DNA from: Marsupella aquatica
Taxonomy: Eukaryota; Plantae; Marchantiophyta
NCBI GenBank assembly: GCA_973895155.1
Contig: OZ316893.1
Span: 18,135,836 to 18,199,835, forward strand
DNA length: 64,000 nucleotides
Reading direction: 5' to 3'
Shown: piece after piece, positions 5,695 through 64,000 of the stretch
How positions within the stretch are numbered: the first letter of the stretch is position 1
How the letters are laid out: each line of letters begins with the position of its first letter
Translations under genes and position numbers: made by a program
The notes under the pieces: generated by a model
Told to the model about the DNA's origin: nothing
Database searches by the model: none
The model's input: the letters and a program-made list of their open reading frames with translations, nothing else

Positions 5695-5729
5695 CTTTTA
5701 CATTGTCAGAGACAGTTTAGACTACCTCT

Positions 5730-20962: not shown

Positions 20963-21126
20963 AGCAGACTAGTTGTCATTTGTGTTCTCTTGGCAGATAT
21001 GGATTGCAGGTAGGTGATCGATGGGGCTCACTTGCACCCGACCTTCTGATCTTCACACCTAAAAAGGTGTATATCAACCTTGTAGAACTCATGGCTAGCT
21101 AGAGTTAGGGGACCTTACTCCCAGCT

Positions 21127-21299: not shown

Positions 21300-22110
21300 C
21301 ACACTACCAGGATAGATACCTCCGTAGCATGAAGATCAAGGCTTTTTTTCTTGGACAACCTGTACTGCACCAGCAAAGCTAAAATCAACCAGTAAAAGAG
21401 CTCTTGGCTAGTTATGAGTTGTACAATGAGTATACCCATGTTTCCTTGTACCAAGTGGAGAACTGAATAGAGCTGGTCTTATGTGGCATAGTTTGCAAAT
21501 CTTTGCATGAGATGTATTGAGTATATGATGTTGCATGATGGTCATAACTTAGTAGGAGTCAATTTTCTACTTGTGTGTCACACCAGCTTGTTGGAGATTG
21601 CCCACACCAACTGGGTTTGGAACACATGACAGGAAACAAGAAACAAGTTTCTTGTTACCAGCAAAAAAATTCCTATTACCAGGAAAAATGATAATCTAAA
21701 AATATATCCTAAGAAGTCTCATTTTCCAAAAAAATTAACAATACAATATTTTTTTGGTTAGCTTGGGGAGCTGCTATTACCAGCGCCGGGCACTAGCAAA
21801 AAAAAGTTGACGACGCAAAAAACAACAACTTTCCTATTGTTTGTAAATACCTCCACCAACTGAGAGGAGACAAGAAGAAGCAAGGAGCGTAGATAGTTAA
21901 GTGTTGGGTATGTTAGTCAAAGAAAGACCCTCAACAGGCCTGTTGGGCAAATTGGATACATTATGGGGGCAGAATAATTATAAACCCATACAAATATAAG
22001 TGTAGTAGATCATTCAGTTGAGATTGAGACAAGGGGATACAACATCACAACTAATAACCCGGTGAAATAATTTGTCCAATAAATGTGTCTAAACAATTAG
22101 CAGCATTCCA
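21300..22110 (+). mobile_element. Ancient decayed remnant related to the 3' non-coding part of the family 1 LTR
   Basis: Colinear patches (ACTACCAGGATA, CTGAATAGAG, TTGTGTGTC, TGCCCACA, TTAGCAGC) shared with 15120-15680. Boundaries approximate. Confidence 0.55.
21613..21853. mobile_element. MITE-like element of the same family as 18232-18615, opposite orientation
   Basis: 8-bp TSD CACCAACT (21605-21612 / 21854-21861). Ends match those of 18232-18615 in reverse complement. Confidence 0.75.
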
Positions 22111-32602: not shown

Positions 32603-33470
32603 ACTTTCACCCTGAGAGTTTGCATCTCTAGATGATGTAAGCTTAGGTCAAGAATGTAGAGACATTGGGTTGTATTGTTTGGGTGCCTGAAGAACCAACA
32701 GTGCGCAAATTGTTGCACTCCCACCTGTAACTTACACCATGTTTTCACCATATGGCATGATGTCCACAACACATCTTATAGTTTTGGTTCAAATATTCTC
32801 CTCCATGAATATGAATACACTAGCACAACAATTCCCCCCAAAATGCCTTGTCAGCTTCAAAGTGTAGAATCTTGGTTTGAACTACAATCACTATGTTAAC
32901 TAGGATTTGCTCTAACCCTAGTTCAAGGGATTGCTCCTTATCTTCTCCATGTTCTCAATGGTGTAAGAACATAAAAAGAGAATGTTCAAGAGAGAACATA
33001 AAGCACATAGCAAGAAATGAGAGCTTGAAGAGGAACAATTATGATGATGCTTCTAAGTAGACACATAATCGCTAATAAAGTTTTATCATTCCAGTGGACG
33101 AAGACCACCTTGAGTTGAACCACCTAACAATTGAGTAAGTGTATGGCTGAAGTGTTTTCCTAATCAGGTTTCTCCCCACACAAAGGCAGCTGCACATAGA
33201 GGTGGACAATCATTGCCAACACCATGATCCACAAAAAAGACATCAAACCTATATATTGGCCCACATACAATCCATGCTCCAATGATCCATTCCAACAATC
33301 ATAAAAATAAAGACATTATACCGGACTGCATGGAAACAATCCTGCCTTTTCAATTGTTTGTAAGCAAACAGTCCAAGATTTGGTGGGATACCATATTATG
33401 TTGTTTGATTGACAAAGATGTAATTGGTGCTACAATGTCCTGGGACAGAAGGCAGTGAATGAGAAGTTTG

Positions 33471-42575: not shown

Positions 42576-43179
42576 TGTCGTGCGCATACATATCGCTACA
42601 CAACATACATCGCTTGTCACATACATCCAGACATAGTCACACTGCCACATCACAAACACAAGAGAATGGAATACAAGTGGAACTCATGTCCACACATGTC
42701 CAAAACCCACAATCAATCTCCATACAATCGGCACAACGATCCCGGTCAACAATACCCCATCGATCCCGCACCGATCCGATCACACACGTATGTCAAGCCA
42801 ACGCACCTTGCACTACTCAAGGAATCCACATTACACAAGCGGAGCTCACAGCCACCATAGCCACTCAAGCTCCTCTCTCTCCAAGGCTCAACATTGAAAG
42901 ATGACCTTTCAATGCCTCACAAGTGAGAAGTACCCTCTCACACAAACCTGACGGAACCTTATCGGCTCCAATAGCACTCATACCAAACATACATACTCTA
43001 ATAGCACGATATACTACTACACTACTCAGAATGGTGTGACAGCTGTCGTGCGCATACATATCGCTACACAACATACATCGCTTGTCACATACATCCAGAC
43101 ATAGTCACACTGCCACATCACAAACACAAGAGAATGGAATACAAGTGGAACTCATGTCCACACATGTCCAAAACCCACA
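42576..43179 (-). repeat. 3' terminal B1-A2-B2 repeat block
   Basis: B1 43044-43179, spacer GC 43042-43043, A2 42715-43041, B2 42576-42711. PPT at ~43183-43190. Confidence 0.9.
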
Positions 43180-44674
43180 ATCGCCCCCCTAGCTGGGAGT
43201 AAGGTCCCCTAACTCTAGCTAGCCATGAGTTCTACAAGGTTGATATACACCTTTTTAGGTGTGAAGATCAGGAGGTCGGGTGCAAGTGAGCCCATCGATC
43301 ACCTACCTGCAATCCATATCTGCCAAGAGAACACAAATGACAACTAGTCGGCTTCACCGACATTGAGGACACAACCATGATCCACTAGGAATCACCTGCA
43401 ATGGTGGTGTCAAACATGACATGTGCCATCCTCTAGAACACTTATCACAAATCAACATAGTAGCTGCTCCCTGAGTAGATCCACACAACATACATTTCAA
43501 GCCAGCACGAACATGTGCCAAACTTGGATCTACTGTACCATCAATGTTGGGAAGGTGACATGGTGCACAGTTGCGCACATGATCCTTCCAAACCATACCA
43601 TCGCGTCCCTCCAACATCAGGACACCAGAAGGCAACACTTCACGCACACGTAAGATTGTCCGGTCTGCGGTCACATCAAGTGTCGTGGGTGCTGTCTGTT
43701 GCAAATAAATATAATCACCAGGATGAAATCGCCGAATGCTTGCACAGTAACCTCCTCCACGAATAGTGGCATACCTCAAAGTATCACGATGTTGGGCAAT
43801 GGCAAGGTTGTCGAAAGCCATGGGCATCACTCACTAAAATACTCGTGCTCTCTCTGAACACACCTTGACCCAAACATCAGGATCATCCAAGTTCACAACT
43901 GATGCAGCATCACGACGAATAGCTGCTAGCAAATTTGGCTCTCTACCATAGAGCAAAAAGTAAGGTGAGAAGGATGCAAGTGATGCTTGCCGACTGAAAC
44001 GGTAGCCCATAGCTAACCAAGGTAGCTGGAGATCCCAATCTCCCAGATGACCAACCTGCAAGCCATACTTACGCAATCCTCTCTTCACAGTTTGCACAAC
44101 TCTCTCAGCTAATCCATCTGCCTCAGGATGATCACGAGAGGTAGTACGATGATCAATCAGAGCTTGTTCACACAAACTCTCAAACTCTCCACGGAACTCA
44201 GTTCCCTGATCAGTCAACACCTCAACTGGTGCTCCAAAATGACTGAGTACACGATCCAAAAATGTAGCAGCAACTCCTCCACTGGCTTTATCTGGCAACG
44301 CCACTAGCTCAATTGTGACGGGTACCCCGTCACGGGAAGTCACACATAACTGGTTGCAAAGGCCGATACCTTGTTAATAGTCAATGTAAATAAGCCATTT
44401 TTTAATTTTTAGTTAATTCCGTCATTATAGGTTGATGATGCCCCAGGTGACTTTATATTCTTTCTCTCATAATAGTTCTAAGATTTGCGGCGACCTAAGT
44501 GGGCAAATATTTTGGGACCTTGAAACTAGCCAGGACCAGCCCCATAGGACTTACCGTTTTGCTTCAAGAGCTATTGTTGAGACCCCCATTGCAAAGTCAG
44601 GAGAGGGGGGGGTTTTTTTAAATAAATCCCTCCTCAGGAGGGCGAGTCCCATTAGTGGCCGTCCGAGAGAAAGA

Positions 44675-45062
44675 GGGGCTGCCTCGCGAGCCCATAGGGC
44701 TGCGTGCCCGGGCGATTAATGGGGCTCCGCGAGCTGAAGGGGCTGCCTCGCGAGCCCATAGGGCTGCGTGCCCGGGCGATTAATGGGGCTCCGCGAGCTG
44801 AAGGGGCTGCCTCGCGAGCCCATAGGGCTGCGTGCCCGGGCAATTAATGAGGCTCCGCGAGCTGAAGGAGCGCAAGCGAGCGGGGGGGGGGGAGTTAAAG
44901 GGCCTCCCGCGAGCTGGGAGGATCACGCGAGCGGGGGGGAGTTAAAGGGCCTCCCGCGAGCTGGGAGGATCACGCGAGCGGGGGGGAGTTAAAGGGCCTC
45001 CCGCGAGCTGGGAGGATCACGCGAGCGGGGGGGAGTTGAAGGGCCTCCCGCGAGCCGGGAGG
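44675..45062. repeat. Two adjacent GC/CpG-rich minisatellites (~64 bp x3 and ~48 bp x4)
   Basis: Units GGGGCTGCCTCGCGAGCCCATAGGGCTGCGTGCCCGGG... and GCGAGCGGGGGGGAGTTAAAGGGCCTCCCGCGAGCTGGGAGGATCAC. Confidence 0.85.
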
Positions 45063-45486
45063 AATGGCCGCGCGCCCTGCATAGGGCCGCGCGCAGGAGG
45101 ACGCAAGGGTAAGGCCCGAGAAATGGGCCGGGGCGCATGGCGAAGGCGCCAGGAGTTTTTTCGGTTCTATTTTTTTTTCCTTCCTTTTTCTTTCCCTCTT
45201 CCTTTTGCACGACCCTCTCATTGCCGAAAGCAAAAACGGGGTTCTTCTCTCTCTTGCCGGAAGCTCTCTCCAGATTCTAATTATTTTTGAAGCTCTCTCT
45301 TTCATGGTGGATTAGTGGGGCTTGCTGGCGTCATTCTTCCAGGCATTAGTGGCGGCCGCACGGAGTAGTGACGGGAAATTGAGAGAATTTAAGTGATCGG
45401 GCTACGGGGGCTGTTTCGGGCCAGGGAATTGACATTGCCACGGGTGACGGGATTGGTGATTGAGAAATTGATTTCGGGATGCATGG

Positions 45487-47343
45487 ATGCTAGATCAACC
45501 AGAGTTTAGTGCATCACGCATTCGGAGATACAAGGCTGCTTACCGTGACTACGTGGAGACTCGGATTACACGGGAAAGGGAAGAGAGAGAAGTTATGATG
45601 AGCACGGGATTGGCAGCGGGTTCCTCACCGGTGGGTAGGAAGATTTTTCGTCGAATTTATCCCAAGACCTCCACCAAGGTGATGGAGGATTGTCGGAACA
45701 TTTTCCAAGCCACCGGGCTTACAGAATTCATGAAGGTGGAGATTACCATCCCTTCAGGGAAGAGCTGGGACATTGAGGCCGGGATGGAGTTCCGAACGGA
45801 GGGAATCTACTTTGAATGTCTCAAACGTGTAGTGCCCCATGTGGAGTTGGCTAAGCTATTGTTTCTTGAGAATCAGAAATTCTCATTCACACCTCGGAAT
45901 ATCAGGGGAGAACTCACGTTGAAAATGGTGGCCACTTGGGTGACCAATCCTACCTCCACCACCGCCATCCCTCTTTCTGCTGTCAAGGATGTTGAGTATA
46001 AGGGCTTCCTGGCCAAGGTGCATCAACGGGTTCTTGGCAACGTGCAATCCGGAGTGCTGAATGAGGAGCATTTCGTGGTAGCTATGGACATCAAGAACTA
46101 CCCAGCCCATGTGTACGGATGGTGGTGCTACGGATTGAAGAAGCTATTGGCCGCTGAGCCCGGGAGTGTGAAACCAGGTGGGGCTGTACATTTGATGGGG
46201 TCATTTGTATTGGCCAGGGCAGAAGGGTTGATTGGTTCTCCGGGGCATGAAGACACGGGATCATCTCTCACCACGGAGATCCGGAGTATTGCCACTACCG
46301 TTTTAGGGAAGCTCACGGAGGAATCATTGTCTGCTGGTGGGGAGGATAATAGAGAAGAAGAGAACCAGGAGGATGATTGCACATTGGAGTGGCTTGAATC
46401 ACTCGTGGGAGATCCGAAACAGCCTCTGGAATACAACATTCCGGATGTTTACTTGGCAGAGCTACGGGATTTCAGAGAGGGAGTCCACGAGGGACTCAAG
46501 CTAGTCCACGCATTGAGGGAGTCTCTCAAGCACGCCACAGTCAAAGTAGAGACGTTAGAGCAGAGCATCCTGTCACTGAAGGAGGTGATCAAGACCAAGG
46601 AGCAGACCATTCATGAGAAGGTCAGGCACATCAATGCAGCTCACGTAGAGATCACCAACTTGAAGGGAGCTTTGTCCACCAAGGCCAAGGAAGCAGAAGA
46701 AGTAGGAGCGTTGAGGCAAGCATTGGCCAAAGAGAAGCAAAATTCTGGAGAAGTGATGGAGTGGAGGAACCAGGTGGGAGCACTACGGAGTCAGGTGGCA
46801 GCCTTTGAGACACGAGCGAAGAGAAGTGAGGCCCTGAGTCTAGGGAAACGGAAGAGTCCCGGCACACCTGGCTCCACACTTTCCCCGGATGTGATCTCCC
46901 AAGCTATCGAGATGGTGGTGAAGGAGGTTAGTGGGAAGTATGGACCCTTGTTGGATGGAGCCAAGAAGAGTCAGGAGAAGAGTAAGAGCTTGGAGAAGAA
47001 GCTCCGGGAGGTACGGAAATCGTTACGGGAGGCTCAGGTCAGTACGGGGATGCCACCCAGGTCTGTCACCCCCGGGACTCCCATGGCCACGGGGCAAGTT
47101 CTACCGTTGGAGTTGCGGTCCGGAGAAGAGGCTACCCTCTGGAAGGACACAATTGGTGAGGGGTACATCAAGGCGTGGCAGGCCTTGGCTGCTTTGAGGA
47201 AGCGCGGGAGCAGCAGCACTAAGAGTACTCCGTCGAAGAAGAAGAAAAGTACGGTGGCACTCACTCCCGTGAGTGATGAGGAGGAGGACCACTCACGGGG
47301 CACAAGTCCGGGCACCGAGAGCGAAGAAGAAGAGGAGGATTAG
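45487..47343 (+). CDS. 618-aa protein of unknown function with C-terminal coiled coil and basic/acidic tail
   Basis: Intact ATG-initiated ORF inside the family 3 unit. Has a heptad-like region, PSKKKK and GKRK NLS-like motifs, and an acidic C-terminus. Confidence 0.75.
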   Translation: MLDQPEFSASRIRRYKAAYRDYVETRITREREEREVMMSTGLAAGSSPVGRKIFRRIYPKTSTKVMEDCRNIFQATGLTEFMKVEITIPSGKSWDIEAGMEFRTEGIYFECLKRVVPHVELAKLLFLENQKFSFTPRNIRGELTLKMVATWVTNPTSTTAIPLSAVKDVEYKGFLAKVHQRVLGNVQSGVLNEEHFVVAMDIKNYPAHVYGWWCYGLKKLLAAEPGSVKPGGAVHLMGSFVLARAEGLIGSPGHEDTGSSLTTEIRSIATTVLGKLTEESLSAGGEDNREEENQEDDCTLEWLESLVGDPKQPLEYNIPDVYLAELRDFREGVHEGLKLVHALRESLKHATVKVETLEQSILSLKEVIKTKEQTIHEKVRHINAAHVEITNLKGALSTKAKEAEEVGALRQALAKEKQNSGEVMEWRNQVGALRSQVAAFETRAKRSEALSLGKRKSPGTPGSTLSPDVISQAIEMVVKEVSGKYGPLLDGAKKSQEKSKSLEKKLREVRKSLREAQVSTGMPPRSVTPGTPMATGQVLPLELRSGEEATLWKDTIGEGYIKAWQALAALRKRGSSSTKSTPSKKKKSTVALTPVSDEEEDHSRGTSPGTESEEEEED

Positions 47344-50300
47344 ATAGGCGTACGGACGTGGGTGTACGGCCTCCAGATTTCCAACATTTTAGTGGGGGGT
47401 CACTCATGGGCTTGTTGGGATGAGCTCGCGGAGCTGATTCCAACAAGAGGCGGCGCTCCTCAAACGGAGCCAGGATGAGCAAGTTATGGCCTGGAGAACT
47501 TATGTTTTTGCGGTACGGAAACGGCCATAACTCAGGCGTCTGAAGTCCGTTGAGGGAGCGACTTAGTGATTCGGAAGCAGGAAAAGAAGAGCTATCCAGG
47601 GGTGAGCTCAGGTGTGCACTTGGAAGGGCACCTAGTTTCGGCCATTTTGGGGTGCCTCTCACTTTCAGGGTTCACGTGTACTGTTGGGGTGCCGTCGAAG
47701 GCACCGTCGGCCCCCTTGTTTTGGGTTTAGGGTTTTAGCAGCATGTGTGTGCCGCATGCTCCTCTTCAGTTTAAGGATTTCTCTTAGTGCAAGGTTTTAG
47801 CGGCGCCGCTAGGGTAGCCGCCACCGTTGTGACCCTGTGAGGGGTGCTTTGGTGTGATTTTTCAGTATTTAGGGGGATAGCCCCGAAGTAGTTAGGGGGA
47901 CTCAGTGTGAAGTTAGCAAGGAGGGATAGAGTGGAGCCTGAGGAGTTTGAAAGCGTGTTCAGAGTAGTGAGGGGGAGCCATACTCATTGTCCGGAGAGGC
48001 AGGAGTTGAGTAGACGGCAGGAGGCCGGGTTACTCATGCAATGTGTATCGTTTTTCCCAAGAGATATGGATCTGTACATTTGACTTGATGGGCTTTTGTT
48101 GTGTGTTCCTTCTCCCTTTTTCGCTTTCCGAATTGTGTTCTCCCGTTCTATGATTTGAAGAAACTTGCTTGGTTTGAGTCGGCCTTGTGAGTAGGGGTGG
48201 TGACAGCACTCTTTGGGTGACTCCGAGTGAAGGTGTAGTGGGGTAGTCGGCAGGACTTGATCAAAAGCTGTGGGGTGAGGGTAGTCGGTAGACTTGATCA
48301 AAACCTACATTTCCGGGAGCGGAAACCAAAATACTCATCCTGGTGTGAAAAGAATCCAAATAGCGTCCCTCCACGACCCCGTAATACGATACCAACGGTT
48401 TAAGCGAAGAAAAGTGCGGTTTGCACGTATTAACCGTTGGAGAGGCAAGTGACATCAATCCACTTGGAGAAGTGCTCCACCATGACCAAAACATACCGAT
48501 TATGACATTGGGTAAGAGGTAATGGACCAGCAAAATCCAAACTCCAATGATATCCCAAACCCATGATCGGCAACGGGTGCAACTGGGGAGTGGGAGCATT
48601 AAATGATGCTCTCACTCTATCACATACCACACACTTAGCTATCAACTGCTGGACATGAGTGTGTATACCACGCCACCAATATTGTGTCTGCAGCAAGCTG
48701 AAAGTGCGCTTTACACCAAAGTGACCCAACTCCTCGTGCGCATGTCGCACCAAATGTACTCTCTATGATGGTTTTGGGACCACCAACACTCTACCATCAT
48801 GCAGTACTCTCAAAATATGGTTTTCCTCCCATCGAAACCTCTTGGCTCTCTGTAGAACCCTGTCACGTTCCTTGCCATCAACACTGCCAACAATAGAACC
48901 ACTGCGCAGATATTCCAACACTCTCACATCATTGTGAATATCTTGCTGTCCAGTAGTTACCTCACTAACATCCACATCTGAAGACTCATCATCCACTCCA
49001 TCTAATGAGGTAGAGTCCACAGATCCACTGTATGCTGGCACCCAACAAAGAAAGGCAGATGCATGCCATCCTGGCACCATCTCCTTATCTGACTCATCAT
49101 GCCATCTGGCTCCAGTCTCATCTTGCTGACTGGTACATGGATTGCGGCTTAATCCATCTGCATCCAAGTTCACTTTTCCAGGCCTATGCACCACCTGAAA
49201 ATCATACTCCTGTAACAACAATGCCCATCGTGCAAGCTTCCCTGTAAGCTTGTCAGACTCCATTAACCACTTAAGAGGCTGATGATCAGTGATCAAGGTG
49301 AAGGGGTTACCAAACAAGTAGCAACAAAAGTGTGCAACAGCCCACACTGCTGCCAAACACTCTCCCTCATAAGAGCTATACTTAGCCTCTGTTGAATTGT
49401 TTGATCTACTGGCATAAGCCACAACAAACTCATTCCCCTCATCATCCTTCTGAGTCAGCACTGCTCCAAGTCCTACTCCACTCCAATCAGTGTGTAGCTG
49501 AAATGGTCTGCCTGAAATGGGTCTTCTCAAAATAGGGGATGATGCCAACCTTTGCTTCAACTCCTGAAAGGCATGCTCCTGGTCATCACCCCAAATCCAT
49601 TCCTGATCCAACTTAGTGAGTATGGTCAAAGGTTTAGCAAGCTGGCTAAATCCTTTAACATACCTCCTGTAGTAGCTCGCCAATCCCAAGAATGCACAAA
49701 CTCTACTCACATCAGTAGGACAAGGAATCTGTGTAATGGCCTCCACTTTAGTCTGCTGTACACCCAATCCCCCTGGGTATATAGTGTGGCCCAAATACTC
49801 AATCTGGTCTTGGAAGAACTTACACTTGCCATGATGGAGCTTCAACCCATGTGCTCTCAATCTCTCCAACACAATCTGCAAGTGCTGTTGATGTTCTTCC
49901 ACAATAGAAGAATAGACCAAAATATCATGAATATAACATCTGACAAAATCCAAACCTGCAAGGATTCGATCCATGACTCTCTGGAACTCAGCTGGTGCAT
50001 TCTTCAACCCAAATGGTAAGAATAACCACTGATACAAACGATCTTTGCCATAAGAATCAATCCCCCAGAATGCTGTCTTGGACCTGTCAGCATGCCTAAT
50101 TGGAAGCTGATGGTACCCTGCCCTCAGATCCAATGAACTGAAAACCTTTGCATGCCCCATAGCATCAAAGATCTCCTCAGGTGTGGGCATGGCATATCGA
50201 TCAGATTTTGTCTGGCGATTAATAGGTCTGTAATCACCACACATGCGCCTATCTGTGTAATTGCCATGCACATCCTTCTTGGCTGGCATCACTATGGCAG

Positions 50301-50619
50301 ATGCATACTCCCCATATGAAATCTCCACCAATCCAGCCTCCAACAAATCTTGAGTTCTGCTTTGAATCAGAGCTCTCTCCATGTCACTATAACGGTATGG
50401 TCTATGAAAGATTGGCGCATCACTAGCCAATTCAATCTGAATACCAGGGCCCTTTAGTGTCCCCAAATCCTTCATGCTGAATGCAAAACAATTCCAATAA
50501 CTCTTCAGGAATCGATGCATGCGACGTCTCTCCTCCCCTGTTAACTTAGGGCCAAGCTGTGGTTCCCAACTCTCCACCAAATCCCTAATATCTCTTTGTA
50601 GGGTAGAAGAGATAGCCGA

Positions 50620-50628
50620 TGATTGCTA
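50620..50628 (-). promoter_or_regulatory. Putative stop-codon readthrough signal TAG-CAA-TCA
   Basis: Stop at 50626-50628. The RT ORF at 50580 is 45 nt downstream in the same frame. Same sequence as in copy A. Confidence 0.7.
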
Positions 50629-52236
50629 TTTAGCAGTAGATTGAGCAGTCCCTTCCTGCTCAACAATCTGTCCAGCCTTGGCCAATCCTGCCATAGGTCC
50701 ATGGACTGTCTGCTCGCCCCCAACTGTGGTCAATACTGTCTCAGTGGACCGCAAGCTCACCAAGGGACAATCAGTAATTCCAGCAGAGCGCATCCGCAAT
50801 TGTTCGGCTACTCCCAAGCTGATAATCCAAGTCAAACAATTCAGGTCCATTGCTTGAGCAAGAACCTGGCGCCGCAAACCCTTTGACACAGAGGCAACTG
50901 CAGTGGTGCCAGTCAAAAATCCCATAGCACGCTCTCTCTCATCAGCAATAGGCTCCACTAACTGCTGGAGAGTTGTGTCCCACACAAGTCCAGGGCCACC
51001 TCCTCTGAATGCATATGAAGTAGAGTGGCTGACAAGAGTGGGTAATGCACAACGTGGGCGCCCAACTGCATTGACCACTGCCAATGGAGGTCTATCAGGT
51101 TGGGTCACACCCTGTGCACGACGCCCTGGATCCAAAATATCATCCACCACTAAGGTTGGTGAGCGTGGAATATTGTCAAATGCGTGCTTCAGCACCTCAC
51201 ATGGGATCAAATTGGTCCACCACAAGCGTGGACGATGTGCACAAGAACCCACACATGCGGCATCCAATAACACAGCAGGTCCAATCCAAGACCTCACCTG
51301 GTGAACACTGGCAACAATCCGACTACGATCATCACCTAACAATGGCACATTCTCCAAAATGTATGCTGGAGACTGTGTCTGATGTAGCTGGAGATGACGC
51401 AGCACCCGTAATATCTCCCAAAACAGTGCAGAGCGTGGATCATGAAGTCCATGCCCAACGCCAGCTCTAGATTGGCCCTGACATGGCCAACCAGCAATCA
51501 CCAAATCAATGGGGCCAACATGATGCAGATGATCCACCCCCAGCAATGAAATATCAGTAGGTAGTGCATGCTGATAACCACGAATAGCATCCATTGGCAG
51601 CAATTGTGGATATCTATCCACCAACATAGCCACATGCCGCAATGAGACCCTCCGTGCTGTCTCATCTGTCTCCACATACAAATAACGACGCACATGAATT
51701 CCTGCCTGAAGAACAGCAGCCAATCCAATGCTAATCCCACCAAAAAGATCCAACAAACAAATACCCTCCGGTGGATATTGCCAAGCAATAGGAGTGGTAT
51801 CCAATGGTGAAAGAGTCACAGGTCCATCTGCAAGAGACTGCTCTGCTCCTGACTGTGGTGTAAAAGTATGACGCCATGCATCATGTACCAATCGTGCTGC
51901 TGCCTGTGGCAAGGCCTGTGCAGTGCCCCACACTGGTACAACACTGCCAACAGGTAATCCTCGCATGATGTGCTCCTCATAAGACTCCTCCAATGGTGGA
52001 ACATCGGCTGCATGTGCATTACCCTCAATCAAATCATCGGGTCCAGCAATTACACCACTGAATGCTGCCAAAGACAATGGTGTGGATTTAGGGCCTCCCA
52101 CAGGTCCACTAAATCTCACTGGCAATTTTCTCAATCGAGCATCTCCTGACTGCCAATCAGATCTATATGACACTGATTCCTCCCAAAAATCAAGAATAAA
52201 TCCCATGGGGTAGAGCACTGTACATCCCACCAACAC
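50626..52236 (-). CDS. DNMT3-like DNA (cytosine-5) methyltransferase domain of the retrotransposon polyprotein (domain ~50815-51770, uninterrupted)
   Basis: Motifs LLDLFGGISIG (I), YLYVETDE (II), GPIDLVIAGWPCQ (IV, catalytic Cys), YILENV (VI), AHRPRLWWTNL (VIII), ERERAMGF (IX) and RRQVLAQAM (X), in non-permuted order. Confidence 0.9.
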   Translation of the reverse strand: MLVGCTVLYPMGFILDFWEESVSYRSDWQSGDARLRKLPVRFSGPVGGPKSTPLSLAAFSGVIAGPDDLIEGNAHAADVPPLEESYEEHIMRGLPVGSVVPVWGTAQALPQAAARLVHDAWRHTFTPQSGAEQSLADGPVTLSPLDTTPIAWQYPPEGICLLDLFGGISIGLAAVLQAGIHVRRYLYVETDETARRVSLRHVAMLVDRYPQLLPMDAIRGYQHALPTDISLLGVDHLHHVGPIDLVIAGWPCQGQSRAGVGHGLHDPRSALFWEILRVLRHLQLHQTQSPAYILENVPLLGDDRSRIVASVHQVRSWIGPAVLLDAACVGSCAHRPRLWWTNLIPCEVLKHAFDNIPRSPTLVVDDILDPGRRAQGVTQPDRPPLAVVNAVGRPRCALPTLVSHSTSYAFRGGGPGLVWDTTLQQLVEPIADERERAMGFLTGTTAVASVSKGLRRQVLAQAMDLNCLTWIISLGVAEQLRMRSAGITDCPLVSLRSTETVLTTVGGEQTVHGPMAGLAKAGQIVEQEGTAQSTAK

Positions 52237-52256
52237 ATCATATGACTCTGCCTTAG

Positions 52257-54615
52257 TCAGAATAGCTCGCGCCTGTATCTGTGAGCTATCTGTGGTATGA
52301 CTTCCTGAATCCTCAAATCAAGTGATCTCCTGGTGATATGCTGTGTAGGTGTAGGTCCCCCCAATGAAGTCTGAATGGGAAAGGGACAATCGTCCAAATC
52401 CTCTGGACGCAATCCCAATCCACGTATGGCAGACTTCCCCAACATCAAGGGCTGAGCACCAGTATCTAGTAACACTCTCTCTGGCTGGTATACTGCTCCA
52501 GAAGGCCCAACTAATCGGAAGATACCACTCCGATTATCCAATGACACAACACTAGGTTTAAACCTAGTCCTCTCAAATGCAGGGCGTGCTGGTAAATCCA
52601 CCAACCTCACTACTGCTGCATGCCATGTCTCACTAGTAGCAGTAGGTGGTATGGTCTTCACTGCTTCAACACTGCAAGTTGCTTCTGCATGGGAAGCAAC
52701 AACTGGAGTGTCCTCACAGAGTGTAGCTGCCAATCTGAACACTTCTGCAAGACCAACTCCCAAGTTCAGCATGTCTGTCGTTGAAAATAATGGGGTGCGT
52801 ACTATGGCAGTAGCCACCCCCCAGCAGAGTACCTGTCATCCCTACTATATCACTCTCGGATTCTACCAACTTACCCATGCCAGGGTTTGTCCGAACCAGG
52901 TTCATAGAGGTAGTCTGAATTGTCTCTGACAATGTAAAAGACTGAGGAAGCTTCGTCTGTCGACGTGCATCCCCCCTCTGTGGATCTAGCTCCACTAGTG
53001 CTCCTCGGGGCTCAAGAGCTTTGGCTGCCCCACGTGTCAAAGTTGTTGATGCATCAATATGTGCAGTGCCACACATGAATCCCATGGTGGCAAGATCTTC
53101 ATCAGCTCCATAAGATGTGGAAGGATCATGGGATGTGGAAGGTCCATAGGATGTAGATGCCCCATCACCAGAAGTAGGTCTCACCTGGGAACTAGCCATG
53201 GCAGCTAGCTGTTGCTCCAATTGAGCAATCTTAGCATCCTTTGGATCTATGGTTACAGCAGGGGCAGCGTCACCTCCCTGTCTCCCTGCATGTGGCATGC
53301 CATGACCACGTCCACCACCTCTACCTCCTCCTCCTCTTCCCTGATCATGTGTATGGGATCCTCCCCTCCATAACTCAGGGTGGAGTGAGAAACACCTATC
53401 CTTGGTGTGTCCAGGAGCTCCACAATGATCACACTGTCGCTGATCAGGTGCTGATGCTCCCCCTGATCCTCTATAATCTGGGCAATATCTCTGTGCATGA
53501 TCCCCACCACAGGTCCAACATCCTGACTGTTGTCCAGCATAAGAGGGCACAGGTCTCTGGCTGGTAGACTCTCGTGCAATAGGCTTCTCCCTCTGGCTCT
53601 TCCGTGCAGTAGGCTGTGGTGTAGATGTAGATGCAGCCTTTGGTGCTTCCTTGGCAAATCTGGAAGTCACCACCTTCTCATTCACCATATTGAGCTCAAT
53701 ACGCTCAGAAAGGGTGAAAACAACTACTAATGTGGGATCTGCATCCCTAAGCAGAGTGACATCTCTCACTCTGCGTCGCAATTCTCTGTCCAGAATTGCA
53801 TACCAAAACTGGATTGCTTGAGCCTCTGTCACTCCCTTGGTGATAGTGATGAATCTGCACATACGAGTGTATGCCTCACGTAGACTCTCTCCAGTCTTGC
53901 GCTGGAACTCCTGAAGACCCTTCAACTTATCAGTTCTTACACCCTGATAGTTCTGCTTTAGTACCTCAAAGAATTCCACCACAGGATTAAATGTTGGCGC
54001 AACTCCAATTCCTGTCATAATCACACCGGCAGGAGTAGCGGTGGATGCTGCTGGAGTGCTGCTGGTGGATGGTGTGCCACTCTGGCTAGTGTTGCTAGAA
54101 GAAGCAGCAGCTGTGCCAATGGGTTGGGCAGCCGCACTAGTGCCATAGGTGATGGACACGTAATTAGGCGACCAATGCTGCCTCCATGCCTCAATCTCAA
54201 TCAAATGAGCCTTCCAAAACTCATGGTAGTCATCCATGGGTGGCCCCTCCAAATACTGAAATAATCCCTTCCATGCCATGAAAGGGGTAAACAATGTGGC
54301 GTTACGCAATGTCTGCATATCGCACGACGTATCAAACTCCTGGATGAAGTCATCCAGATCAATCGTGCCAACTGCACCAGAGTATCATCGTGGGCCCTTT
54401 GTAGCCCCGTACATCTCATCCATATCCCACAACAAAGGTGCAACCACCTGATGATGAGGAGAACTGGTCACTGAGTCCTCATCAGAATCACTGTCTGAAG
54501 CTGCACTGCTGACTGCTACCAATGCCGCTGGCCGAAACTGCGCCCCACTCCGAGTGAAACCGGTCCGTCGTCCATCGGGTAACCCAGCAGCACCAGAAGA
54601 ATCCGTGGTGACCAA
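52257..54615 (-). pseudogene. gag: gag-protease of copy B
   Basis: Zinc knuckles CWTCGGDHAQRYC and CDHCGAPGHTKDRC, an RGG tract and protease LLDTGAQP. One TGA (54385-54387) and two 1-nt indels relative to copy A. True start not determined. Confidence 0.85.
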
Positions 54616-55186: not shown

Positions 55187-55543
55187 TGGGTGACCTCCTC
55201 GCGCTCGACCTCATGCTTCCCCTCGCGCTCACGACCTCGAATAGCCCCGGGATGGGTGACCTCGACCTCGCGCCGGCTTGCGCTTGCGATGGGTGACTTC
55301 GTGCTCGCGGTTGGGAGCACTTTCGGGATGGATGACCTCACGCGTCGCCTTATGCGTGCACAGTTGGGTGACCTCCTCGTGCTCGACCTCCTGCTTCCCC
55401 TCGCGCTCACGACCTCGAATAGCCCCGGGATGGGTGACCTCAACCTCGCGCGGGCTTGCGCTTGCGATGGGTGACTTTGCGCTCGCGGTTGGGAGCACTT
55501 TCGGGATGGGTGACCTCACGAGTCGCCTTATGCGCGCATAGTT
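55187..55543. repeat. CpG-rich ~178-bp x2 tandem repeat with internal GATGGGTGACCTC subrepeats in the 5' leader of copy B
   Basis: Units start at 55187 and 55365; a partial subrepeat lies at ~55170. Confidence 0.85.
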
Positions 55544-56050
55544 GTGTGTGTACACAAAACAGAAGTCGTCGGGCTCAGAAATGGCAACATTTGCCACTCG
55601 AAAACAGTGATTTCCTTCACAAAAACGGCAACGTCGATGGCTCTCGACCTCTGCAAACCTGTTGCGCACGGTTCTGGGACATTTCGCGAGCGTCCCTTGA
55701 CAATAAAACACTGCGAGCACTCAAAATTCCAATAGATCTGTCCACAAAACAGTAGTGCGATACAAGCAGCAACCTTCGGCCATCTCTTTCCAGATCCAGA
55801 TCTAGACTCCGACTCAATCCAGATCCAGATCTAGCCTAGATCCAGATCCAACAATGTTCAAGCTTGGCCAGAACCAGATCGAATAGCAACAGAGTACTCA
55901 AACAATAGAACCAACGATTCAAGAAACATGAATCCGCGTCAAACACAAATCCAATTGATTCGAGCTACCACGAACCGTCACCGTCAACAACAAACTCAGA
56001 CTGAGCTTCTGTCCGCACAACAGAGTTTGAAGCTCATGATCTTTCAATGT

Positions 56051-56377
56051 AATCTCCATACAATCGGCACAACGATCCCGGTCAACAATACCCCATCGAT
56101 CCCGCACCGATCCGATCACACACGTATGTCAAGCCAACGCACCTTGCACTACTCAAGGAATCCACGTTACACAAGCGGAGCTCACAGCCACCATAGCCAC
56201 TCAAGCTCCTCTCTCTCCAAGGCTCAACATTGAAAGATGACCTTTCAATGCCTCACAAGTGAGAAGTACCCTCTCACACAAACTTGACGGAACCTTATCG
56301 GCTCCAATAGCACTCATACCAAACATACATACTCTAATAGCACGATATACTACTACACTACTCAGAATGGTGTGACA
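56051..56377 (-). repeat. 5' terminal repeat A1 (327 bp) of copy B
   Basis: Near-identical to 42715-43041 (I see about 2 substitutions). Not adjoined by repeat B or a recognisable PBS. Confidence 0.9.
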
Positions 56378-57675: not shown

Positions 57676-60600
57676 TGTGATGCCTAGCCAGGAATCACTA
57701 GGCCGGTTTACATGGTAAAAGCAGGAGTGTACCTTGGAAACACCTTAGTATAGTAACAAGACAAGGAAAATATAAACAATTAAGGGTGACTATGGAACCC
57801 GGGCCGAGGCCGGAAGTAAGGACACCGGGGGAGAGAACACGATTAGGGTTAGGGCGCGCTAAGCATCGGCGGCTAGGGGTGACCAATGGGAGGGAAGACC
57901 AGAGGAGGAGAGGGGTAAGGACCGCTCGCAAGGAATGGTGGCTCATTTGCAAGCACGAACTGGGTAGACGACTACGGGAGGCCAAATACTGTCAGCTACT
58001 TAGGCAAGCACTCTGGGTGGGAACAGATACCAACGATCGAGTCAAGGAGGGTATGAGCAACGTCAATCAAGCGGCACATTTTTGGGGATGCCTGTTCGAA
58101 CGGGCAACTGAGTACATTGGGACTTACAAGGACGAAGAATCGGAGAGAGCAGCTCGAGAACGGCAGGAGCTCGCTCGACTATGGGAGCTGCAAAAGTCTG
58201 CCTTCTTAGGAGGAGAACTCATCAAGGCTGAGTTCTTGTGGACTCCTACTGCCAATCAGCTCGATGACCTTCTGTTTTGCGAAGACAGAATTGTCGGCAT
58301 TCGGGAAGCCATCAACCGCTGCAACAACGCGCACTGGGAGTTGAAGGGTAGCACGGAAGGGTGGACAAAGGCAACTGTGCTAGGAGAAACATCCACGGCA
58401 GCCAAGATGAAGAGGAAAGGAAACAACAACGAAGAGGCCACCCTGGCAAAAAGAATAAGATCAGCGGCACCAAGGAAACCAGTAGAGTAGTAGAACAGGA
58501 GGCAGGGAGAAGCCGAAGAGGAGGAGGTCGATCCCATTAATGCCATTCCAACAAAGGATGACACCTGGAAAGGCTGGGCGGCGACCCTACCAGAGGAAGT
58601 GCAATTACATTTTGCACGGGAGGAGGATGCATGCTTTACGGCCATGCAGACCAAGAAGTACCAAGGCTTCATGGCCGGATCCAGCTTGGAAGCCTTCGTA
58701 AGATTACCATGGCTGAAGCCGGAGGTGCCGGACTCAGACTTATTAGAATTCGTGGGATCATGGGAACCCGAGACCAATTCCACGAGGGTGTATGGGAAGG
58801 ATTTCTATCTCACTCCCCGGGTGATTGCCGAGGTGTTTGGCTTGCCGATGAGTAATAAGACCAAGGTTGATACCAGGAAGACATTACCACAAGAAGTTCC
58901 GGTCGTTCCCAGGACCATCAACGAAGAATGGCTTCTTCCGGAACACCTGCACCAACCCGCACATCGAAGAGATGATCAATTTCTTGCGGGTGACCATGCA
59001 TTGTAACTTGCCGAGGGCAAAGATCGGCAAGGCTTAGGTCTACTTGGCAGAAAGGCCAGACCCAAGCCGGGATTACAACGGGTACCTCCTCAACCAACTG
59101 AAGAAGATCTTGAAGGAGGAACAGCAGGCGATCGGCGTGGGAAGCATGTCCCGGCTTGGCTATCACATGCCGCTGTTGTGCCGGTATGCCAGAAGTCAAA
59201 TCTTTGCCCCAGTACTTCCCCTATCGGCAAGGGCACCGGAGGAGGTTCCGGAGCGGAGGCCGGCAACAGAAGAGCCCAACCAGCCTGCCAGTCCTACGAT
59301 CAAGCAGGTGTTTCGGCCAAGGAAAGAAGACTTGCCGATGCAGCAATCAGGCATGCAGAATCTGCTGAAAATGCTGGAGAAGGAGAGAACGGCACCAGCA
59401 ATGGCAACGGCACCGGTACAGGTCACTGCCCCAGAGGCCGGCCTAAGCCGACTCAGGAGGGAAAACCCCTTTACCGGAGCCAAGGAGAGAAGGAGGCCGG
59501 AACACAAGCCGGGAGTGCGAATGTATGTGGGAGCCTCAAGCCCCGAATTGGAGGTAGAGCAGTCTAAGGCTCCTTGCCGCGGAGAGCAGAGGGAGAGGAC
59601 AGCCTGGAACCCAAAGGAGGAACAAGAGCCCATGATCTGTGAGGCCGTTTTCACGGCAGGACCAGGGGAACAGAGGGGGAAGCCGGGAGTCCAAGCAGTG
59701 GAGGAGGCGATGGAGGACTACAGCAATGATAACTCCGGCTATGGGTCGGATCATCATGTTCCAGGAGTAAGGACCTATGGCCGATTTATCCCCACGCTTC
59801 CAAGAGTAGTTTGAGGGGACCCCACCCAGTAGAGTAGCCCCGAGTCTCCCCCACCAAAGGTTGCTCCCCCGAGGTTTGATGGCATAAAGCAGACGGCACA
59901 AGAATTTCAGGAGCGACTTAGGGAGGAAGAGAAAGCAGCCCTGGCTAGGGAGAAAGATTTACCAGGAGGAGATTGGCCGGAGGACATCAGGCGGCTTGCC
60001 AAAAAAAGAAGCAACCCTCTTGCCACCGTAGAAGAAATCCGCAAGGCGGCTTGGGAATAGAGGCCGAGGTGGTTGATGCCGATGACTTCTACTTACTCCA
60101 CCTATGCTAAAGATAGAGCCATGGAGTACGGGGAGATGTGTGGGGACCTGGCACTCAACATCTTTGGGGAGGAGTTGGAGCAGGGACCTTTCTTCCAGAG
60201 GGAGAGGTTGGAGAAGCACCGATTAGAAGAAGCGGTGGCTTTGGAGAGAAGCAAGAAGGACGAGGTCATCCGGCGGCTTAGGAAGAAGGAAGCCGAGGTG
60301 GAAGTCCTGCAGGCGGCCAAGAAAGCCCAAGATGAGTTGCGGATTAAGCGGCATGAGCTGCAAGGACAATTGGATGCCGCTCAGTCTGGCAATCAGATTA
60401 TCAAGGATAAACTGACTCGGACCCAAGGAGAGTTGGCCAGCGCGGTCAAGGACAGGGCAAAGTGGAAGCAGGAGCTGAGGGACGCAGAGGAGGCCCACTC
60501 AACCGCCAACAACCGGGCCATGGCGGAGACTCAGAGAAGGGAGAGGGCGTTGAAAGGAGAGCTCGAAGATATCCGCGGAGCCCTTGAGCAGAAGGAAGCC

Positions 60601-62377
60601 GAGTTAGGGAAATCCTATCAAGAGATTATTGCGCTGCAGCAGGAGCTTGCGTCCCTGACGGCCAGCTTCAAGGCCGACTTGCGTGAAAAGGATGACCAGC
60701 TCGACCAGACTTATGCCAAGATGAATAAGATGGAGTCTAAGGTCGTAGCAGAGCTCGACAAGGAGCTAAGAGCAACCCAGGAGGAGAGGGCTACCTTAAA
60801 ATTGGAATTGGAAGAAGCCAAAAAGGAGCTGCAGGAGGGACGGAAGGACCTAGAGGCAGCCCAGGAGGAGTTGGAGGAAACCACCAGGAAGATGGAGAAC
60901 TTACAGCGGCAGGCCGACAACCAAATGGAGCGACTGAAGAAACAGGCCGCAGTATTTAAGTGCTTAGCTTCATCTGGTCCAACTCCAATTGTGGGAACTC
61001 CGTTACTAGGAGGGGTACTGGCCGAAAGACAAGCCGAGACACACGCCCCGGTGCCGGAGGTAGGTAGCAAGGGGAAGGGACCAGCTGTCGAAATAGGGAA
61101 GAAGAAGAATCAGAAACCTTCTGGGTCTGGGAGTTATACGGCTTCTCAAGCCGTTGTGACCGAGAAGATAAACCCGGCACCAACCTCCGGCATCGACACG
61201 GTGGTGGATCCACCAGTCCCAGGAAGTGGGGATGGCAAGGCCGAGGCCGGGACAACTAGTAATGAAGCCGAGGTACCAGATCCTCCACTAGAACATGTCG
61301 GGGAGGCCGTGGCCGATGCTGAGGCCGAAGTCGAGGGTGGACCCAGTCAGGCCAATGAAGAGTTGACTCGGTCCGGGGTAGGTAATCTGTTAGAGGACGG
61401 ACCAACGGCAGTGGCTACGGAGGAAGCATTGGGGGCGTCCATTGAGGACCAGCCACCGGGGTCGTGACGGTGTAAGGGAGCCGTCCCTTTTAGGGAGGGC
61501 AAACGTGGAGGTAGGAGGCGTGAGTGGGCAGGGCGGGCGCTGATCTCCAAGTTTAGACTAAGGATCAGGACCAGGAGATGGCCCTGACACTTAGATTAGT
61601 GGGATTGCGGATCCACGAGTAAGGGCGACACTTGTGCTCCTGCCTCACTGTACATAGGTAGATTACAGTTAGGTAGATTACAGATAAGTAGATTAGGCTT
61701 ACGCTGCAAGGAATCAGGCGGATCCACAACCAGGATAAGTACCTGGGCTACGGGGAGTTCAGGGCCTCTTCTTTAACAAGTTTTTAGTTGCACCAGCAGG
61801 GCTGGGATCAAGTAGTAAGAGAAGCTCTTGGTTAGTTATACAGTGACCCTTGTGTATATTCATGTTTCCTCATGCCTAAGAACTGAATAGAGTTGGCCTC
61901 ACGGCTTAGTTCGTAGAGCTTGTGTATGGGATGTACTGTTTGTATGGCAAGTGCATGGTATAACTCAGTCAAAAGGAGTCATTTTGCTGTTTGTGTGTCG
62001 CATTAACTTGTGTGAAGAGTGCCCACATCATGAAGGGAAGTAGCAAGGGAGTGAGAGTTGGATGTGTCGAGCTGAGAGAGGTCTTAGCGGCTTAACCAAG
62101 CCAATTGGGGATCATTCCGGCGGCGGAATCCAAATATACCTAAAGAAAGCGAGGGGAAGACAAGGGAAGGCCTAGATTGGGCCGGCTACGTATCTCATGA
62201 CCCGATGAAGGATCTGTCCAGTATATGTGTGTAAAATGTTAATAGTAGTAGTAGAGGAAATTAGCAGCGTCCCATGCCGCTAAGCCGCGGAAACGGCCTC
62301 GCCGAGGACGAAACCTGTGGGAATCGGCTTGTGCGGGGGCGGTTTCTTGGGTTTGGGGAGCCATGGGACGCAACACA
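57676..62377 (+). mobile_element. Solo LTR, family 1 (older subfamily, 4702 bp)
   Basis: TGTGATGC...GCAACACA with a perfect TSD CACCA (57671-57675 / 62378-62382). Confidence 0.95.
57792..61467 (+). pseudogene. Disrupted LTR-encoded PMD-like/coiled-coil ORF
   Basis: Fragments 57786-58490, 58599-59006, 59044-59814 and 60073-61467 are colinear with the intact ORF. Confidence 0.85.
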
Positions 62378-62915
62378 CACCACTTGGGATATCGTGTGCA
62401 ATCTAGTTAACCCAATCTAGTTTGCGACTAAGGTAAGTCTTCCAAAGTGAGAAGCAAGCAGGGTAGGACCACTAGTAGAATTTATCTGCTACTTCTTTGT
62501 CTACAAAAAAACAATACGTGTATGTCTTAGCTTGCCTCCAAAACAATGCAATTCTTCTCCCCTATCATGGGAGGCCAAATCTACTTGAAGAAACAAGTCT
62601 TGAAACAAGTCTTCACACTGTTTGGAAATCCTCAAAGTCTTCCTCAATGTCAAGAATTAGTGAAGCCTTTGTCTTCTCAGAAAAACTGAGGATCCTGGAA
62701 TCAGGGATAGTAGGCATCACTTCAGCCACAATTTCAGACATGAGGGAAGACGCAATTGACTTGACCTGCTCCCAAAGTGCCCACCGATGAAGCCAAAGCT
62801 TGGTTTCACTATTTGAGAATTAACCTAGATGAAGAAACTTCTTCCAAAGCTCAAGCCAACACTGTGCCTCAAGGAGTGTACATTGAAGTTGTGGGGATTG
62901 CAAAGTCATGCCTGT

Positions 62916-64000
62916 TGTAACGCTGCCAGCATGGCTGGTAATGAGTAATACGGGTTAATCTGTGTTAAGGATGTATGAAGTAGACGTAGGAATCTGTAGT
63001 TATTAGCATAACGACACAAAATTAGCTAGTCATGATGCTTAGAATAGGTTTTAGTAATAATGGGAGTTTATGCTCTGGCTGGCGGCGTGGCACCTGACAT
63101 ATCGCCGGATTAGGGGTGCGTTATGGATGTCAGCCTTGGATCCATATAACTGATCTGGAGGCAGCTCTTGCCACGCTCTGACCCAGACTGAAGGAGTGAT
63201 CGGTAAGCCTCAAGCGTAGCAAGCTTGGCCTATTGTGAGCAAGAAGGGCCGATCAATTGATGCATGATACGGGTATAAAAGATGGACTCTTCCCCGTCTC
63301 AAATTTACCAGTTCTTTCCTCGTGCAAGCTTTGAGCTTGGCCCCTTTGCGCACTTAGTGATTCAGCCAGCCCTCGACACTTTGCCATGTCTGTCACGGTT
63401 ATGTCCAGTTTGGCTATTCACTTTTGGTACCAATTCCTGTGCATTGGTAACCATCTTGCGACCTCACTTGCCAAACATAACCTGCAAAAGTACAAAGCCA
63501 AAAGGCATTATGAATGGCTTATCAAATTGAACGGGCTCTCTCATTACAATAACAACCTCAACCTTCCATTTGAGAGCAAGTACTGCCAAGATGCAAAGAT
63601 CTTTGAGTTCTTCTTCGAGGGAACCAAGTACCTTGGCTTTGGAGAAGCGCTCCTCCAACTCCCGGACAAGGTTTTCAAGATCCCTCGCATGGTGGACTTA
63701 CAGCGTCATCACTTTGATGACATACCTGCCAGGGTGCAGACCTTCCTTGATTGTCGATTTGACATTAGTCCAAACGCGGGAGGACCTTCCTCAATTGCAG
63801 CATTGCTTGGCTTCCCATCTGGAACTTTGGGTCCCATGGCACCTACTCCAGCAGTAGCTACGGCCAACTCACTAGCGCCAGGACCGGCACAGACGCCACC
63901 CCGAGTACCCTTAAGCCGCTCGCCACCACCAGTCGCACCACTCGCTCGAGTGCAATCTGTGGTGAATGCGGTCAACCTGAGCTTGGAGGATGAGGAAGTT
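62916..64000 (+). mobile_element. Start of another family 2 giant LTR (runs off the right edge)
   Basis: TGTAACGC... matches the reverse complement of 32602 inward (GACACAAAATTAGCTAGTCATGATGCTTAGAATAGG). TATA-like TATAAAA near 63274. Encodes VQSVVNAVNLS as in 31456-31950. Confidence 0.75.

Follow-up and report, generated by a model that had tools for sequence, protein, structure and literature searches.

A DNMT3-like methyltransferase domain before a probable leaky stop in a decayed Ty3/Gypsy-type retrotransposon of the liverwort Marsupella aquatica

The window analyzed here, 64,000 nucleotides of the liverwort Marsupella aquatica (GenBank assembly GCA_973895155.1, contig OZ316893.1, forward-strand positions 18,135,836 to 18,199,835), contains two copies, A and B, of a Ty3/Gypsy-type retrotransposon, which carries a DNMT3-like C5 cytosine methyltransferase (MTase) domain between its protease and its reverse transcriptase (RT). 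We are highly confident that this domain is borne by the element and has been under selection. Both copies are dead. The explanation that best accounts for the whole, to which we assign a probability of roughly 55%, is that they are decayed remnants of an element that would pack its MTase in bulk, methylate CG sites in its own new complementary DNA (cDNA), and integrate by way of a DNA circle.

Results

The MTase domain resembles DNMT3 in sequence and predicted fold

The domain in copy A is located as follows:
50833-51777, minus strand: DNMT3-like C5 cytosine MTase domain, in an open frame, with motifs I-X in canonical order

The open frame around it extends from stop to stop over 50626-52317 (minus strand, 563 amino acids), with the domain at residues 181-495. 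A search against the Pfam DNA_methylase profile, proposed in an earlier sequence-only reading of this stretch, gave a match (E 6e-11, 42.7 bits at a cut-off of 22). That reading had claimed a full set of C5-MTase motifs with catalytic PC and ENV, in a canonical, non-DRM order parallel to that of DNMT3. The window translation and the PDB alignments agree with it: PC, ENV, and RxR are present, and 29 of the 30 PDB sequence matches were DNMT3A, B, or C (best E 1e-9), the remaining one being M.HaeIII. The five motifs that it quoted occur in the window in the same order as in the human DNMT3A alignment, but the quoted letters were those of human DNMT3A segments; the window reads ICLLDLFGGI, GPIDLVIAGWPC, AHRPRLWWTNL, ERERAMGF, and RRQVLAQAM.

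A structure model of the domain (pLDDT 95, built from 34 aligned sequences) was used for fold comparisons. Every row among the Foldseek matches listed was a DNMT3A, B, or C structure. When the model was ranked against 48,161 representative chains, DNMT3B scored Z 28.2 (root-mean-square deviation 2.5, 264 residues aligned) and DNMT3A 27.0, with M.MpeI (24.4), M.HhaI (21.1), and DNMT1 (18.0) lower. A DRM identity was rejected, as the motifs are not permuted, and as DRM2 aligned with residues 1-134 of the model only, whereas DNMT3 aligned with residues 2-316. Judged by sequence and modeled fold, the domain is DNMT3-like and non-permuted, an assignment by best match and fold ranking. The catalytic fold and motif order are common to it and to host DNMT3A/B; in contrast to these, it is embedded in a retroelement, and its identity to human DNMT3 is only 21-27%. 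Neither a PWWP nor an ADD domain was found in a Pfam scan of the element's MTase protein.

The domain belongs to an element family distributed from chlorophytes to liverworts

Copy B is 92-96% identical to copy A, with the MTase at the same place, the same stop behind it, and further stops and insertions of its own:
15783-21273, plus strand: main part of copy B, 95% identical to copy A, with protease end, MTase (16294-17238), TAG CAA TCA at 17443, RT, RNase H, integrase, PHD, polypurine tract, and B1, lacking A2-B2 (from repeat comparison and translation)
5695-6357, plus strand: gag end and protease of copy B, split from the remainder by nested 4.7-kb elements (from repeat comparison and Pfam)

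Contigs of four out of four sequencing runs covered all 30 bins from gag to integrase, and the MTase bins were as deep as the RT bins. This even depth over gag, protease, MTase, and RT indicates that the MTase belongs to the element family, and on the same ground an assembly artifact was rejected. With the second copy, it bears out the view of the sequence-only reading that the domain lies between protease and RT at the same position in two insertions and moves with the element.

Relatives were collected from two sources. A search of longer proteins with the MTase gave 83 matches among 6102 candidates, the named ones being from Marchantia polymorpha (up to 72% identity), Calypogeia, Sphagnum, and Closterium. 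In a library of 50%-identity clusters, 231 entries ranging from chlorophytes to liverworts matched at E 1e-30 or better; the best 150 of the 231 were united with the former into a set of 224 proteins. No Klebsormidium sequence was among the matches listed. The MTase lay between RNase H and integrase(-PHD) in one polyprotein in 94 of the 224, the named members of this type being the chlorophytes Hariotina, Scenedesmus, and Haematococcus. In 41 others it followed gag or protease and the protein ended there (in 29 cases 40-200 residues past the complete domain), in 19 it was fused to RT or RNase H, and in 70 only the MTase was visible. Five Marchantia proteins of 1278-1281 amino acids end 87-88 residues past the MTase; the five Marchantia gene models among the fused proteins likely skip the stop via predicted introns. 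As side observations, among the 15 members listed for the Marchantia cluster, four (P0378, P0379, P0380, and P0383) are named Mp_Vg, denoting the male sex chromosome, and in P0421, P0438, P0304, P0473, and P0455, PF01585 or PF00385, which we take to be G-patch and chromo domains, is added to an MTase-PHD polyprotein.

MTase and RT trees were built with FastTree and midpoint-rooted with no outgroup for 40 elements (12 of 12 with the MTase before RT and 28 of 44 of the other type). The MTase-before-RT elements formed a clade apart from the RNase H-MTase-integrase type in both trees (support 0.99 for MTase and 0.998 for RT), and the MTase and RT pairwise distances correlated (Spearman 0.63). The simplest reading of these trees is a single old MTase capture with a later change of position; two separate captures may be the alternative. 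Three scans of viral contigs gave nothing, or only phage C5 methylases at 26-47% identity over short stretches, so that a recent phage donor finds no support.

The domain is under purifying selection between lineages

Among 194 aligned MTase domains of relatives (35-70% overall identity), the catalytic Cys was present in 193, the Glu of ENV in all 194, and the two arginines of motif VIII in 191 and 190. Motif I was variable, and motif IV read Glu-Cys instead of Pro-Cys in 81 of the 194, with the Cys retained. The sequence-only reading had proposed the ratio of nonsynonymous to synonymous substitution rates (dN/dS) as a check for neutral evolution, and the outcome was divided. The two unsaturated pairs gave 0.11 (L125/L126, dS 0.27) and 0.09 (L152/L148, dS 0.16), copy A against four loci gave 0.14-0.15 (dS 1.6-1.7), and distant pairs with finite dS gave 0.10-0.20, which is purifying selection between lineages as far as sequence comparison tells. 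Two close pairs of decayed copies gave 0.29 and 0.47. Against selection stands the comparison of copy A with copy B, which gave 1.14 for the MTase (RT 0.34, RNase H 0.53, integrase 0.84). Such a value is as expected of dead copies, but also of relaxed selection here.

The value of 1.14 would also suit a fragment of host DNMT3 that was captured recently and carried neutrally. That explanation is largely refuted, and we give it next to no weight: the match of 231 clusters across chlorophytes and liverworts, the low identity to human DNMT3, the dN/dS of 0.09-0.20 between lineages, and the congruent deep split in the two trees all contradict it. A role of the domain in DNA or RNA binding or in particle structure instead of methyl transfer would agree with the change of motif IV and the variability of motif I, as well as with the inactivity of the Klebsormidium domain in yeast (PMC5890265). 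We consider this role improbable, as 190-194 of the 194 relatives retain the catalytic Cys, the Glu, and the two Arg at 35-70% overall identity.

A stop in a readthrough context separates the MTase from RT

The frame of the MTase in copy A ends at the following stop:
50620-50628, minus strand: in-frame stop TAG CAA TCA, 68 codons past the MTase, in a CAR-YYA context for readthrough

A CAR YYA sequence after the stop drives tobacco mosaic virus (TMV) readthrough in plants, as described in PMC2754532. We took the best 80 of 293 loci from a metagenome scan for relatives; the two window copies bring the number to 82, and in 62 of these RT begins shortly after the MTase. In 24 of the 26 closest loci (two of which are the window copies), a stop with CAR and a pyrimidine behind it lies 38-45 codons upstream of RT, and such a stop was also present upstream of RT in all three loci at about 50% identity, that is, in 27 of 29 close loci. 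The full CAR YYA occurs in the window copies and in the 50% group. In locus L125, two open frames of 1369 and 1047 amino acids are separated only by TAG CAG TTA. These data make it very probable that the stop after the MTase is leaky and read through. Most ribosomes would then halt at UAG and a minority continue, so that the MTase would be made at the level of Gag and RT and integrase at a fraction of it, and the MTase would likely be packed into the particle in bulk.

Two observations weigh against this expression scheme. Most close loci have CAA CCC (or CCT), short of the full CAR YYA, and none of 33 loci at about 41% identity carries such a stop; bulk expression of the MTase is thus not required family-wide. 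In the 41% subfamily, five decayed loci that were inspected showed no conserved stop upstream of the MTase.

The substrate is probably the element's own cDNA

The stop separates most of the MTase from the integrase, which favors a substrate inside the particle. Of the two substrates named in the sequence-only reading, cDNA fits better than the insertion site, because in this subfamily the MTase sits in the Gag-protease frame, across the stop from the integrase, and we regard the element's own cDNA as the probable substrate. The MTase would mark CG of the extrachromosomal DNA ahead of insertion. The two copies have observed-to-expected CpG ratios of 0.30 and 0.25, as compared to 0.69 and 0.72 in two neighboring elements, while CHG is not depleted in the two copies; in four relatives the CpG ratio is 0.36-0.70. 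This loss fits CG methylation in the replicating lineage, whether by the element's enzyme or by that of the host. As for activity, the domains of SymbioDIRS-Dnmt3 methylate CG de novo in yeast (PMC5890265).

Several points count against a methylated cDNA. Intergenic DNA of the window has a CpG ratio of 0.36, the relatives L121, L125, and L134 reach only 0.55-0.70, and the differences between copies A and B hit CG (0.26 per site) and also CHG (0.19), so host methylation may account for the depletion. Moreover, KnitGypsy-Dnmt3 gave no methylation in yeast, a result that its authors call inconclusive (PMC5890265).

Alternatively, the MTase could act on chromosomal DNA, either at the new insertion site or on existing copies, as self-limiting silencing or as mimicry of the host's gene-body CG methylation. 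The 94 relatives with the MTase between RNase H and integrase-PHD lend themselves to this, as their MTase could travel with the integration complex, and even in the subfamily of the window copies, the readthrough product joins MTase to integrase before cleavage; insertion-site effects and host benefit are raised in PMC5890265. Nevertheless, in that subfamily the stop parts most MTase from the integrase, and the host already methylates inserted copies at CG and CHG. A chromosomal substrate is therefore unlikely in our view, and cDNA remains the preferred one.

Copy A has split repeats instead of two complete terminal repeats

Copy A extends from 56377 to 42576 on the minus strand with AGTG at both flanks, in the order A1, gag, protease, MTase, TAG CAA TCA, RT, RNase H, integrase, PHD, G-run, B1, GC, A2, B2. 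Its further features are:
56051-56377, minus strand: repeat A1, 327 nt, 5' end of copy A, starting TGTCA, 99.4% identical to A2, with the 4-bp target duplication AGTG outside
56227-56238, minus strand: 12-nt segment within A1, complementary to the bases just past A1; candidate self-primer and predicted RNA 5' end by analogy with Tf1
56039-56050, minus strand: candidate primer-binding site adjoining A1; exact 12-nt complement, reached by 0 of 300 control windows, duplex energy not significant
52714-54423, minus strand: gag with CCHC knuckles, in-frame stop near its start and frameshift near its end; homologous to the N-terminus of Marchantia P0005, without a Pfam match
52260-52835, minus strand: aspartic protease (Asp_protease_2 E 8e-4, below the curated cut-off), frameshift near its end
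49126-50505, minus strand: RT and RNase H, in frame past the stop, RT active-site motif altered
48455-48819, minus strand: integrase zinc finger and start of the core, interrupted by a later insertion
44314-48454, no strand assigned: unrelated 4.1-kb insertion in the integrase, TGT..ACA ends, 5-bp duplication TCAAT
43357-44313, minus strand: remainder of the integrase core, C-terminal region, and PHD finger (PHD E 9e-12)
43183-43190, minus strand: G-run polypurine tract adjoining B1 (from sequence)
43044-43182, minus strand: repeat B1, 139 nt, ending GACA, identical to B2
43038-43047, no strand assigned: palindrome GACA-GC-TGTC at the B1/A2 junction, candidate integrase site, single occurrence in the window
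42715-43041, minus strand: repeat A2 (from repeat comparison)
42576-42714, minus strand: repeat B2, 3' end of copy A, ending GACA followed by AGTG (from repeat comparison)

The readthrough-context stop, the PHD-bearing integrase, and the split repeats that the sequence-only reading had listed are all there, the stop in both copies and the A-coding-B-A-B repeats in copy A. The order gag-protease-RT-RNase H-integrase with a DDE integrase, and the TG..CA ends (TGTC..GACA) with a 4-bp target duplication, are those of Ty3/Gypsy elements, but two complete identical long terminal repeats (LTRs) at the ends are missing, the layout being A-internal-B-A-B instead. The label refers to domain order, DDE integrase, and ends. 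A DIRS identity was rejected because of the rve integrase with its H2C2 finger and the target duplications, with no tyrosine recombinase in its place.

Copy A is dead because of the gag stop, the frameshifts before and after the protease, the altered RT motif, and the 4.1-kb element splitting the integrase. That insertion has internal 47- and 64-nt tandem repeats and an open reading frame (ORF) of 623 amino acids (45472-47343) without a clear Pfam family, and the long leader of copy A has a 178-nt tandem duplication (55187-55542). The target duplication of copy B is unreadable because its 5' end is lost; its RT holds a 383-bp insertion (18232-18615) with an 8-bp duplication, presumably hAT-like, to which a piece at 21636-21805 is related.

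The ends suggest integration through a circle

The A-internal-B-A-B layout recurs in the close and the 41% subfamilies. Of 18 loci with at least 450 bases past the PHD, 11 have an internal palindrome GACA-NN-TGTC or TATC behind G-run and B, and seven stop at B and pass into unrelated DNA, as copy B does (short form). This frequency of short forms was taken from loci only, since contigs cannot separate the B1 end from the B2 end. A 4-bp target duplication flanks six of the seven long forms with both ends, and also the short form L127. Contigs of runs X2 and X5 show many different flanks past the B end.

In copy A the palindrome joins the two ends of the element in head-to-tail orientation, 2 nt apart. 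In six of eight elements, the bases adjoining A1 can pair without mismatch over 11-17 nt with a segment of A, a length that at most one of 300 control windows attained. The partner segment lies at position 139-164 of A in seven of the eight, with TATAAAAG about 30 nt upstream of it in four. A similar layout is known from Tf1, in which the 5' end of the RNA serves as its own primer, at a site past the 5' LTR (10.1101/2022.12.06.519325). Self-priming is weakened by the duplex energy of the pair, which was clearly above controls in only two of the eight elements and unremarkable in copy A (136 of 200 controls equally stable), and by the lack of a visible TATA box upstream of the partner segment in copy A.

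The candidate primer site and the polypurine tract would let the cDNA terminate where A ends and where B begins; the replicative LTR would then be B+A, with TGTC/GACA in its middle. We propose that the RNA starts within A and self-primes the minus strand just past A1, while the G-run primes the plus strand, so that the real LTR would be B+A and the cDNA B-A-internal-B-A. The ends of this cDNA would lack the integrase signal; the DNA would circularize, and integrase would cut it at GACA-NN-TGTC, the palindrome within the LTR. From a two-LTR circle this would yield A-internal-B-A-B (long form), and from a one-LTR circle A-internal-B (short form), with the PHD finger on the integrase steering insertion by histone marks. 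The A/B join differs by one letter in most contigs of runs X1 and X2 and varies among copies, which fits end joining. On balance we lean toward a circular cDNA opened inside the LTR, and the candidate internal attachment site, which the sequence-only reading did not see, is a more unusual feature of the element than the MTase itself. One objection to the circle is that A-internal-B is also explicable by recombination between B1 and B2 or by trimming of linear cDNA.

DDE integrases as a rule act on linear DNA, and LTR integrases trim two bases. Both facts would suit a route with no circle, in which transcription continues through A2-B2 and template jumps then produce a linear cDNA whose ends are TGTC and GACA. 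B1/A2 would then be the master copy of the ends, holding both of them plus a 2-nt spacer that could supply the two trimmed bases, and short forms would result from recombination or trimming. We consider this route less probable, because the candidate primer site lies exactly where A ends and the polypurine tract where B begins, both being landmarks that set linear cDNA ends, because the A/B join varies between copies, and because short forms are frequent. The circle therefore stays our preferred route.

Other features of the window

Four copies of a 4.7-kb element lie at 1017-5694 and 8882-13559 (minus strand), 6358-8881 plus 13560-15782 (plus strand), and 57676-62377 (plus strand). It has TGTG..CACA-like ends and a single ORF of 1233 amino acids with only weak coiled-coil Pfam matches, and is likely non-autonomous; two copies are 99% identical, one is nested inside another, and they interrupt copy B. 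An intronless LEC14B/DCAF11 WD40 host gene (36254-37888, minus strand) lies between copies A and B; its protein is 88% identical to that of Calypogeia fissa and at most 74% identical to the other 119 matches listed, which by itself points to a leafy liverwort as the likely host and bears out the land-plant origin suspected in the sequence-only reading. The gag of another Gypsy family lies at 3-953 (minus strand), and 31562-32604 and 62914-63996 are two 67%-identical fragments of a further repeat.

Discussion

Why retrotransposons carry the enzyme that usually silences them is a question left by PMC5890265, whose hosts lend themselves poorly to experiments. Marchantia polymorpha holds the element family as unannotated 'hypothetical proteins' with intact Gag-protease-MTase frames, so that mutants and methylomes can be used; if our explanation is true, this model plant would allow tests of the circle route and of what retrotransposon DNMTs are for. 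The repeat anatomy predicts that a DDE integrase opens a site inside an LTR, contrary to the linear-end rule. Search tools for paired LTRs would likely miss A-internal-B-A-B elements, and in bryophytes the element MTases can raise the number of DNMT3 genes counted or contribute de novo methylation. As a tentative generalization, which we would not yet back at even odds, an old Gypsy clade of green plants, from chlorophytes to liverworts and peat moss, may have moved its attachment sites to mid-LTR, passing circular cDNA through a DDE integrase and pre-methylating it by its own DNMT3, with a liverwort branch making the enzyme at capsid level via a TMV-type leaky stop.

The sequence-only reading was right that MTase-bearing retrotransposons have precedent, namely KnitGypsy-Dnmt3 and SymbioDIRS-Dnmt3 (PMC5890265). 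Its claim that the combination is undescribed stood only in part: split repeats, Gypsy domains, and Dnmt3 had been published together (PMC5890265) and an algal PHD Gypsy was known (10.1101/2022.06.16.496473), while the probable leaky stop and the land-plant range were not found in the literature covered. We found no report of land-plant or chlorophyte members, of the leaky stop, or of an internal attachment site in a search to which subscription papers, Repbase, and REXdb were external. The portions drawn on of PMC11982613, PMC9985172, 10.1101/363937, and 10.1101/2021.11.30.470311 do not mention such elements. For the group of KnitGypsy-Dnmt3, the portion drawn on of 10.64898/2026.05.21.726589 has streptophyte Gypsy-DNMT3 as its sole such listing. 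The main text of PMC5890265, as far as consulted, has nothing on PHD, Marchantia, readthrough, or the repeat mechanism, and its Figure 4c may show PHD or domain order.

The closest known system is KnitGypsy-Dnmt3 of Klebsormidium nitens, with Gypsy domains, DIRS-like A-coding-B-A-B repeats, and Dnmt3 in the Pol ORF (PMC5890265), which we compared by its published description rather than its sequence. Both are Gypsy elements with a non-permuted, intronless Dnmt3-like domain and the same repeat layout, and in both the DNMT is under purifying selection (Ka/Ks under 0.2 there, 0.09-0.20 between lineages here). In contrast to KnitGypsy-Dnmt3, in which the DNMT is encoded in the Pol ORF along with RT and RNase H, here the MTase ends the Gag-protease frame before the probable leaky stop; a DNMT in one ORF with RT/RNase H was absent from both copies and 27 of 29 close loci, and present in the 41% subfamily and P0477. 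Moreover, KnitGypsy-Dnmt3 was described as an acquisition of the K. nitens lineage, whereas the present relatives span liverworts, Sphagnum, Closterium, and chlorophytes. SymbioDIRS-Dnmt3 is likewise a retroelement with Dnmt3 and A-coding-B-A-B repeats, but is a DIRS with a tyrosine recombinase (PMC5890265), in contrast to the DDE integrase (rve) and 4-bp target duplications here. The Tf1/sushi group, Tj1, and Tosmo share the self-priming layout and an in-frame stop limiting Pol, but have ordinary LTRs, a chromodomain, the stop between Gag and protease, and no MTase (10.1101/2022.12.06.519325). Gypsy-7a_cRei of Chlamydomonas is a green-lineage Gypsy with a PHD finger, for which neither MTase nor split repeats are reported in the portion of 10.1101/2022.06.16.496473 drawn on. 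Troyka was rejected as a match for the split repeats, having CG..CG ends and a 3-bp duplication and occurring in animals only (PMC12440569), as against TGTC..GACA and 4 bp here. Taken together, an MTase in a Gypsy element has close precedent, and what the present family adds is its host range, its proposed expression logic, the structure of its ends, and its intact frames in a model liverwort.
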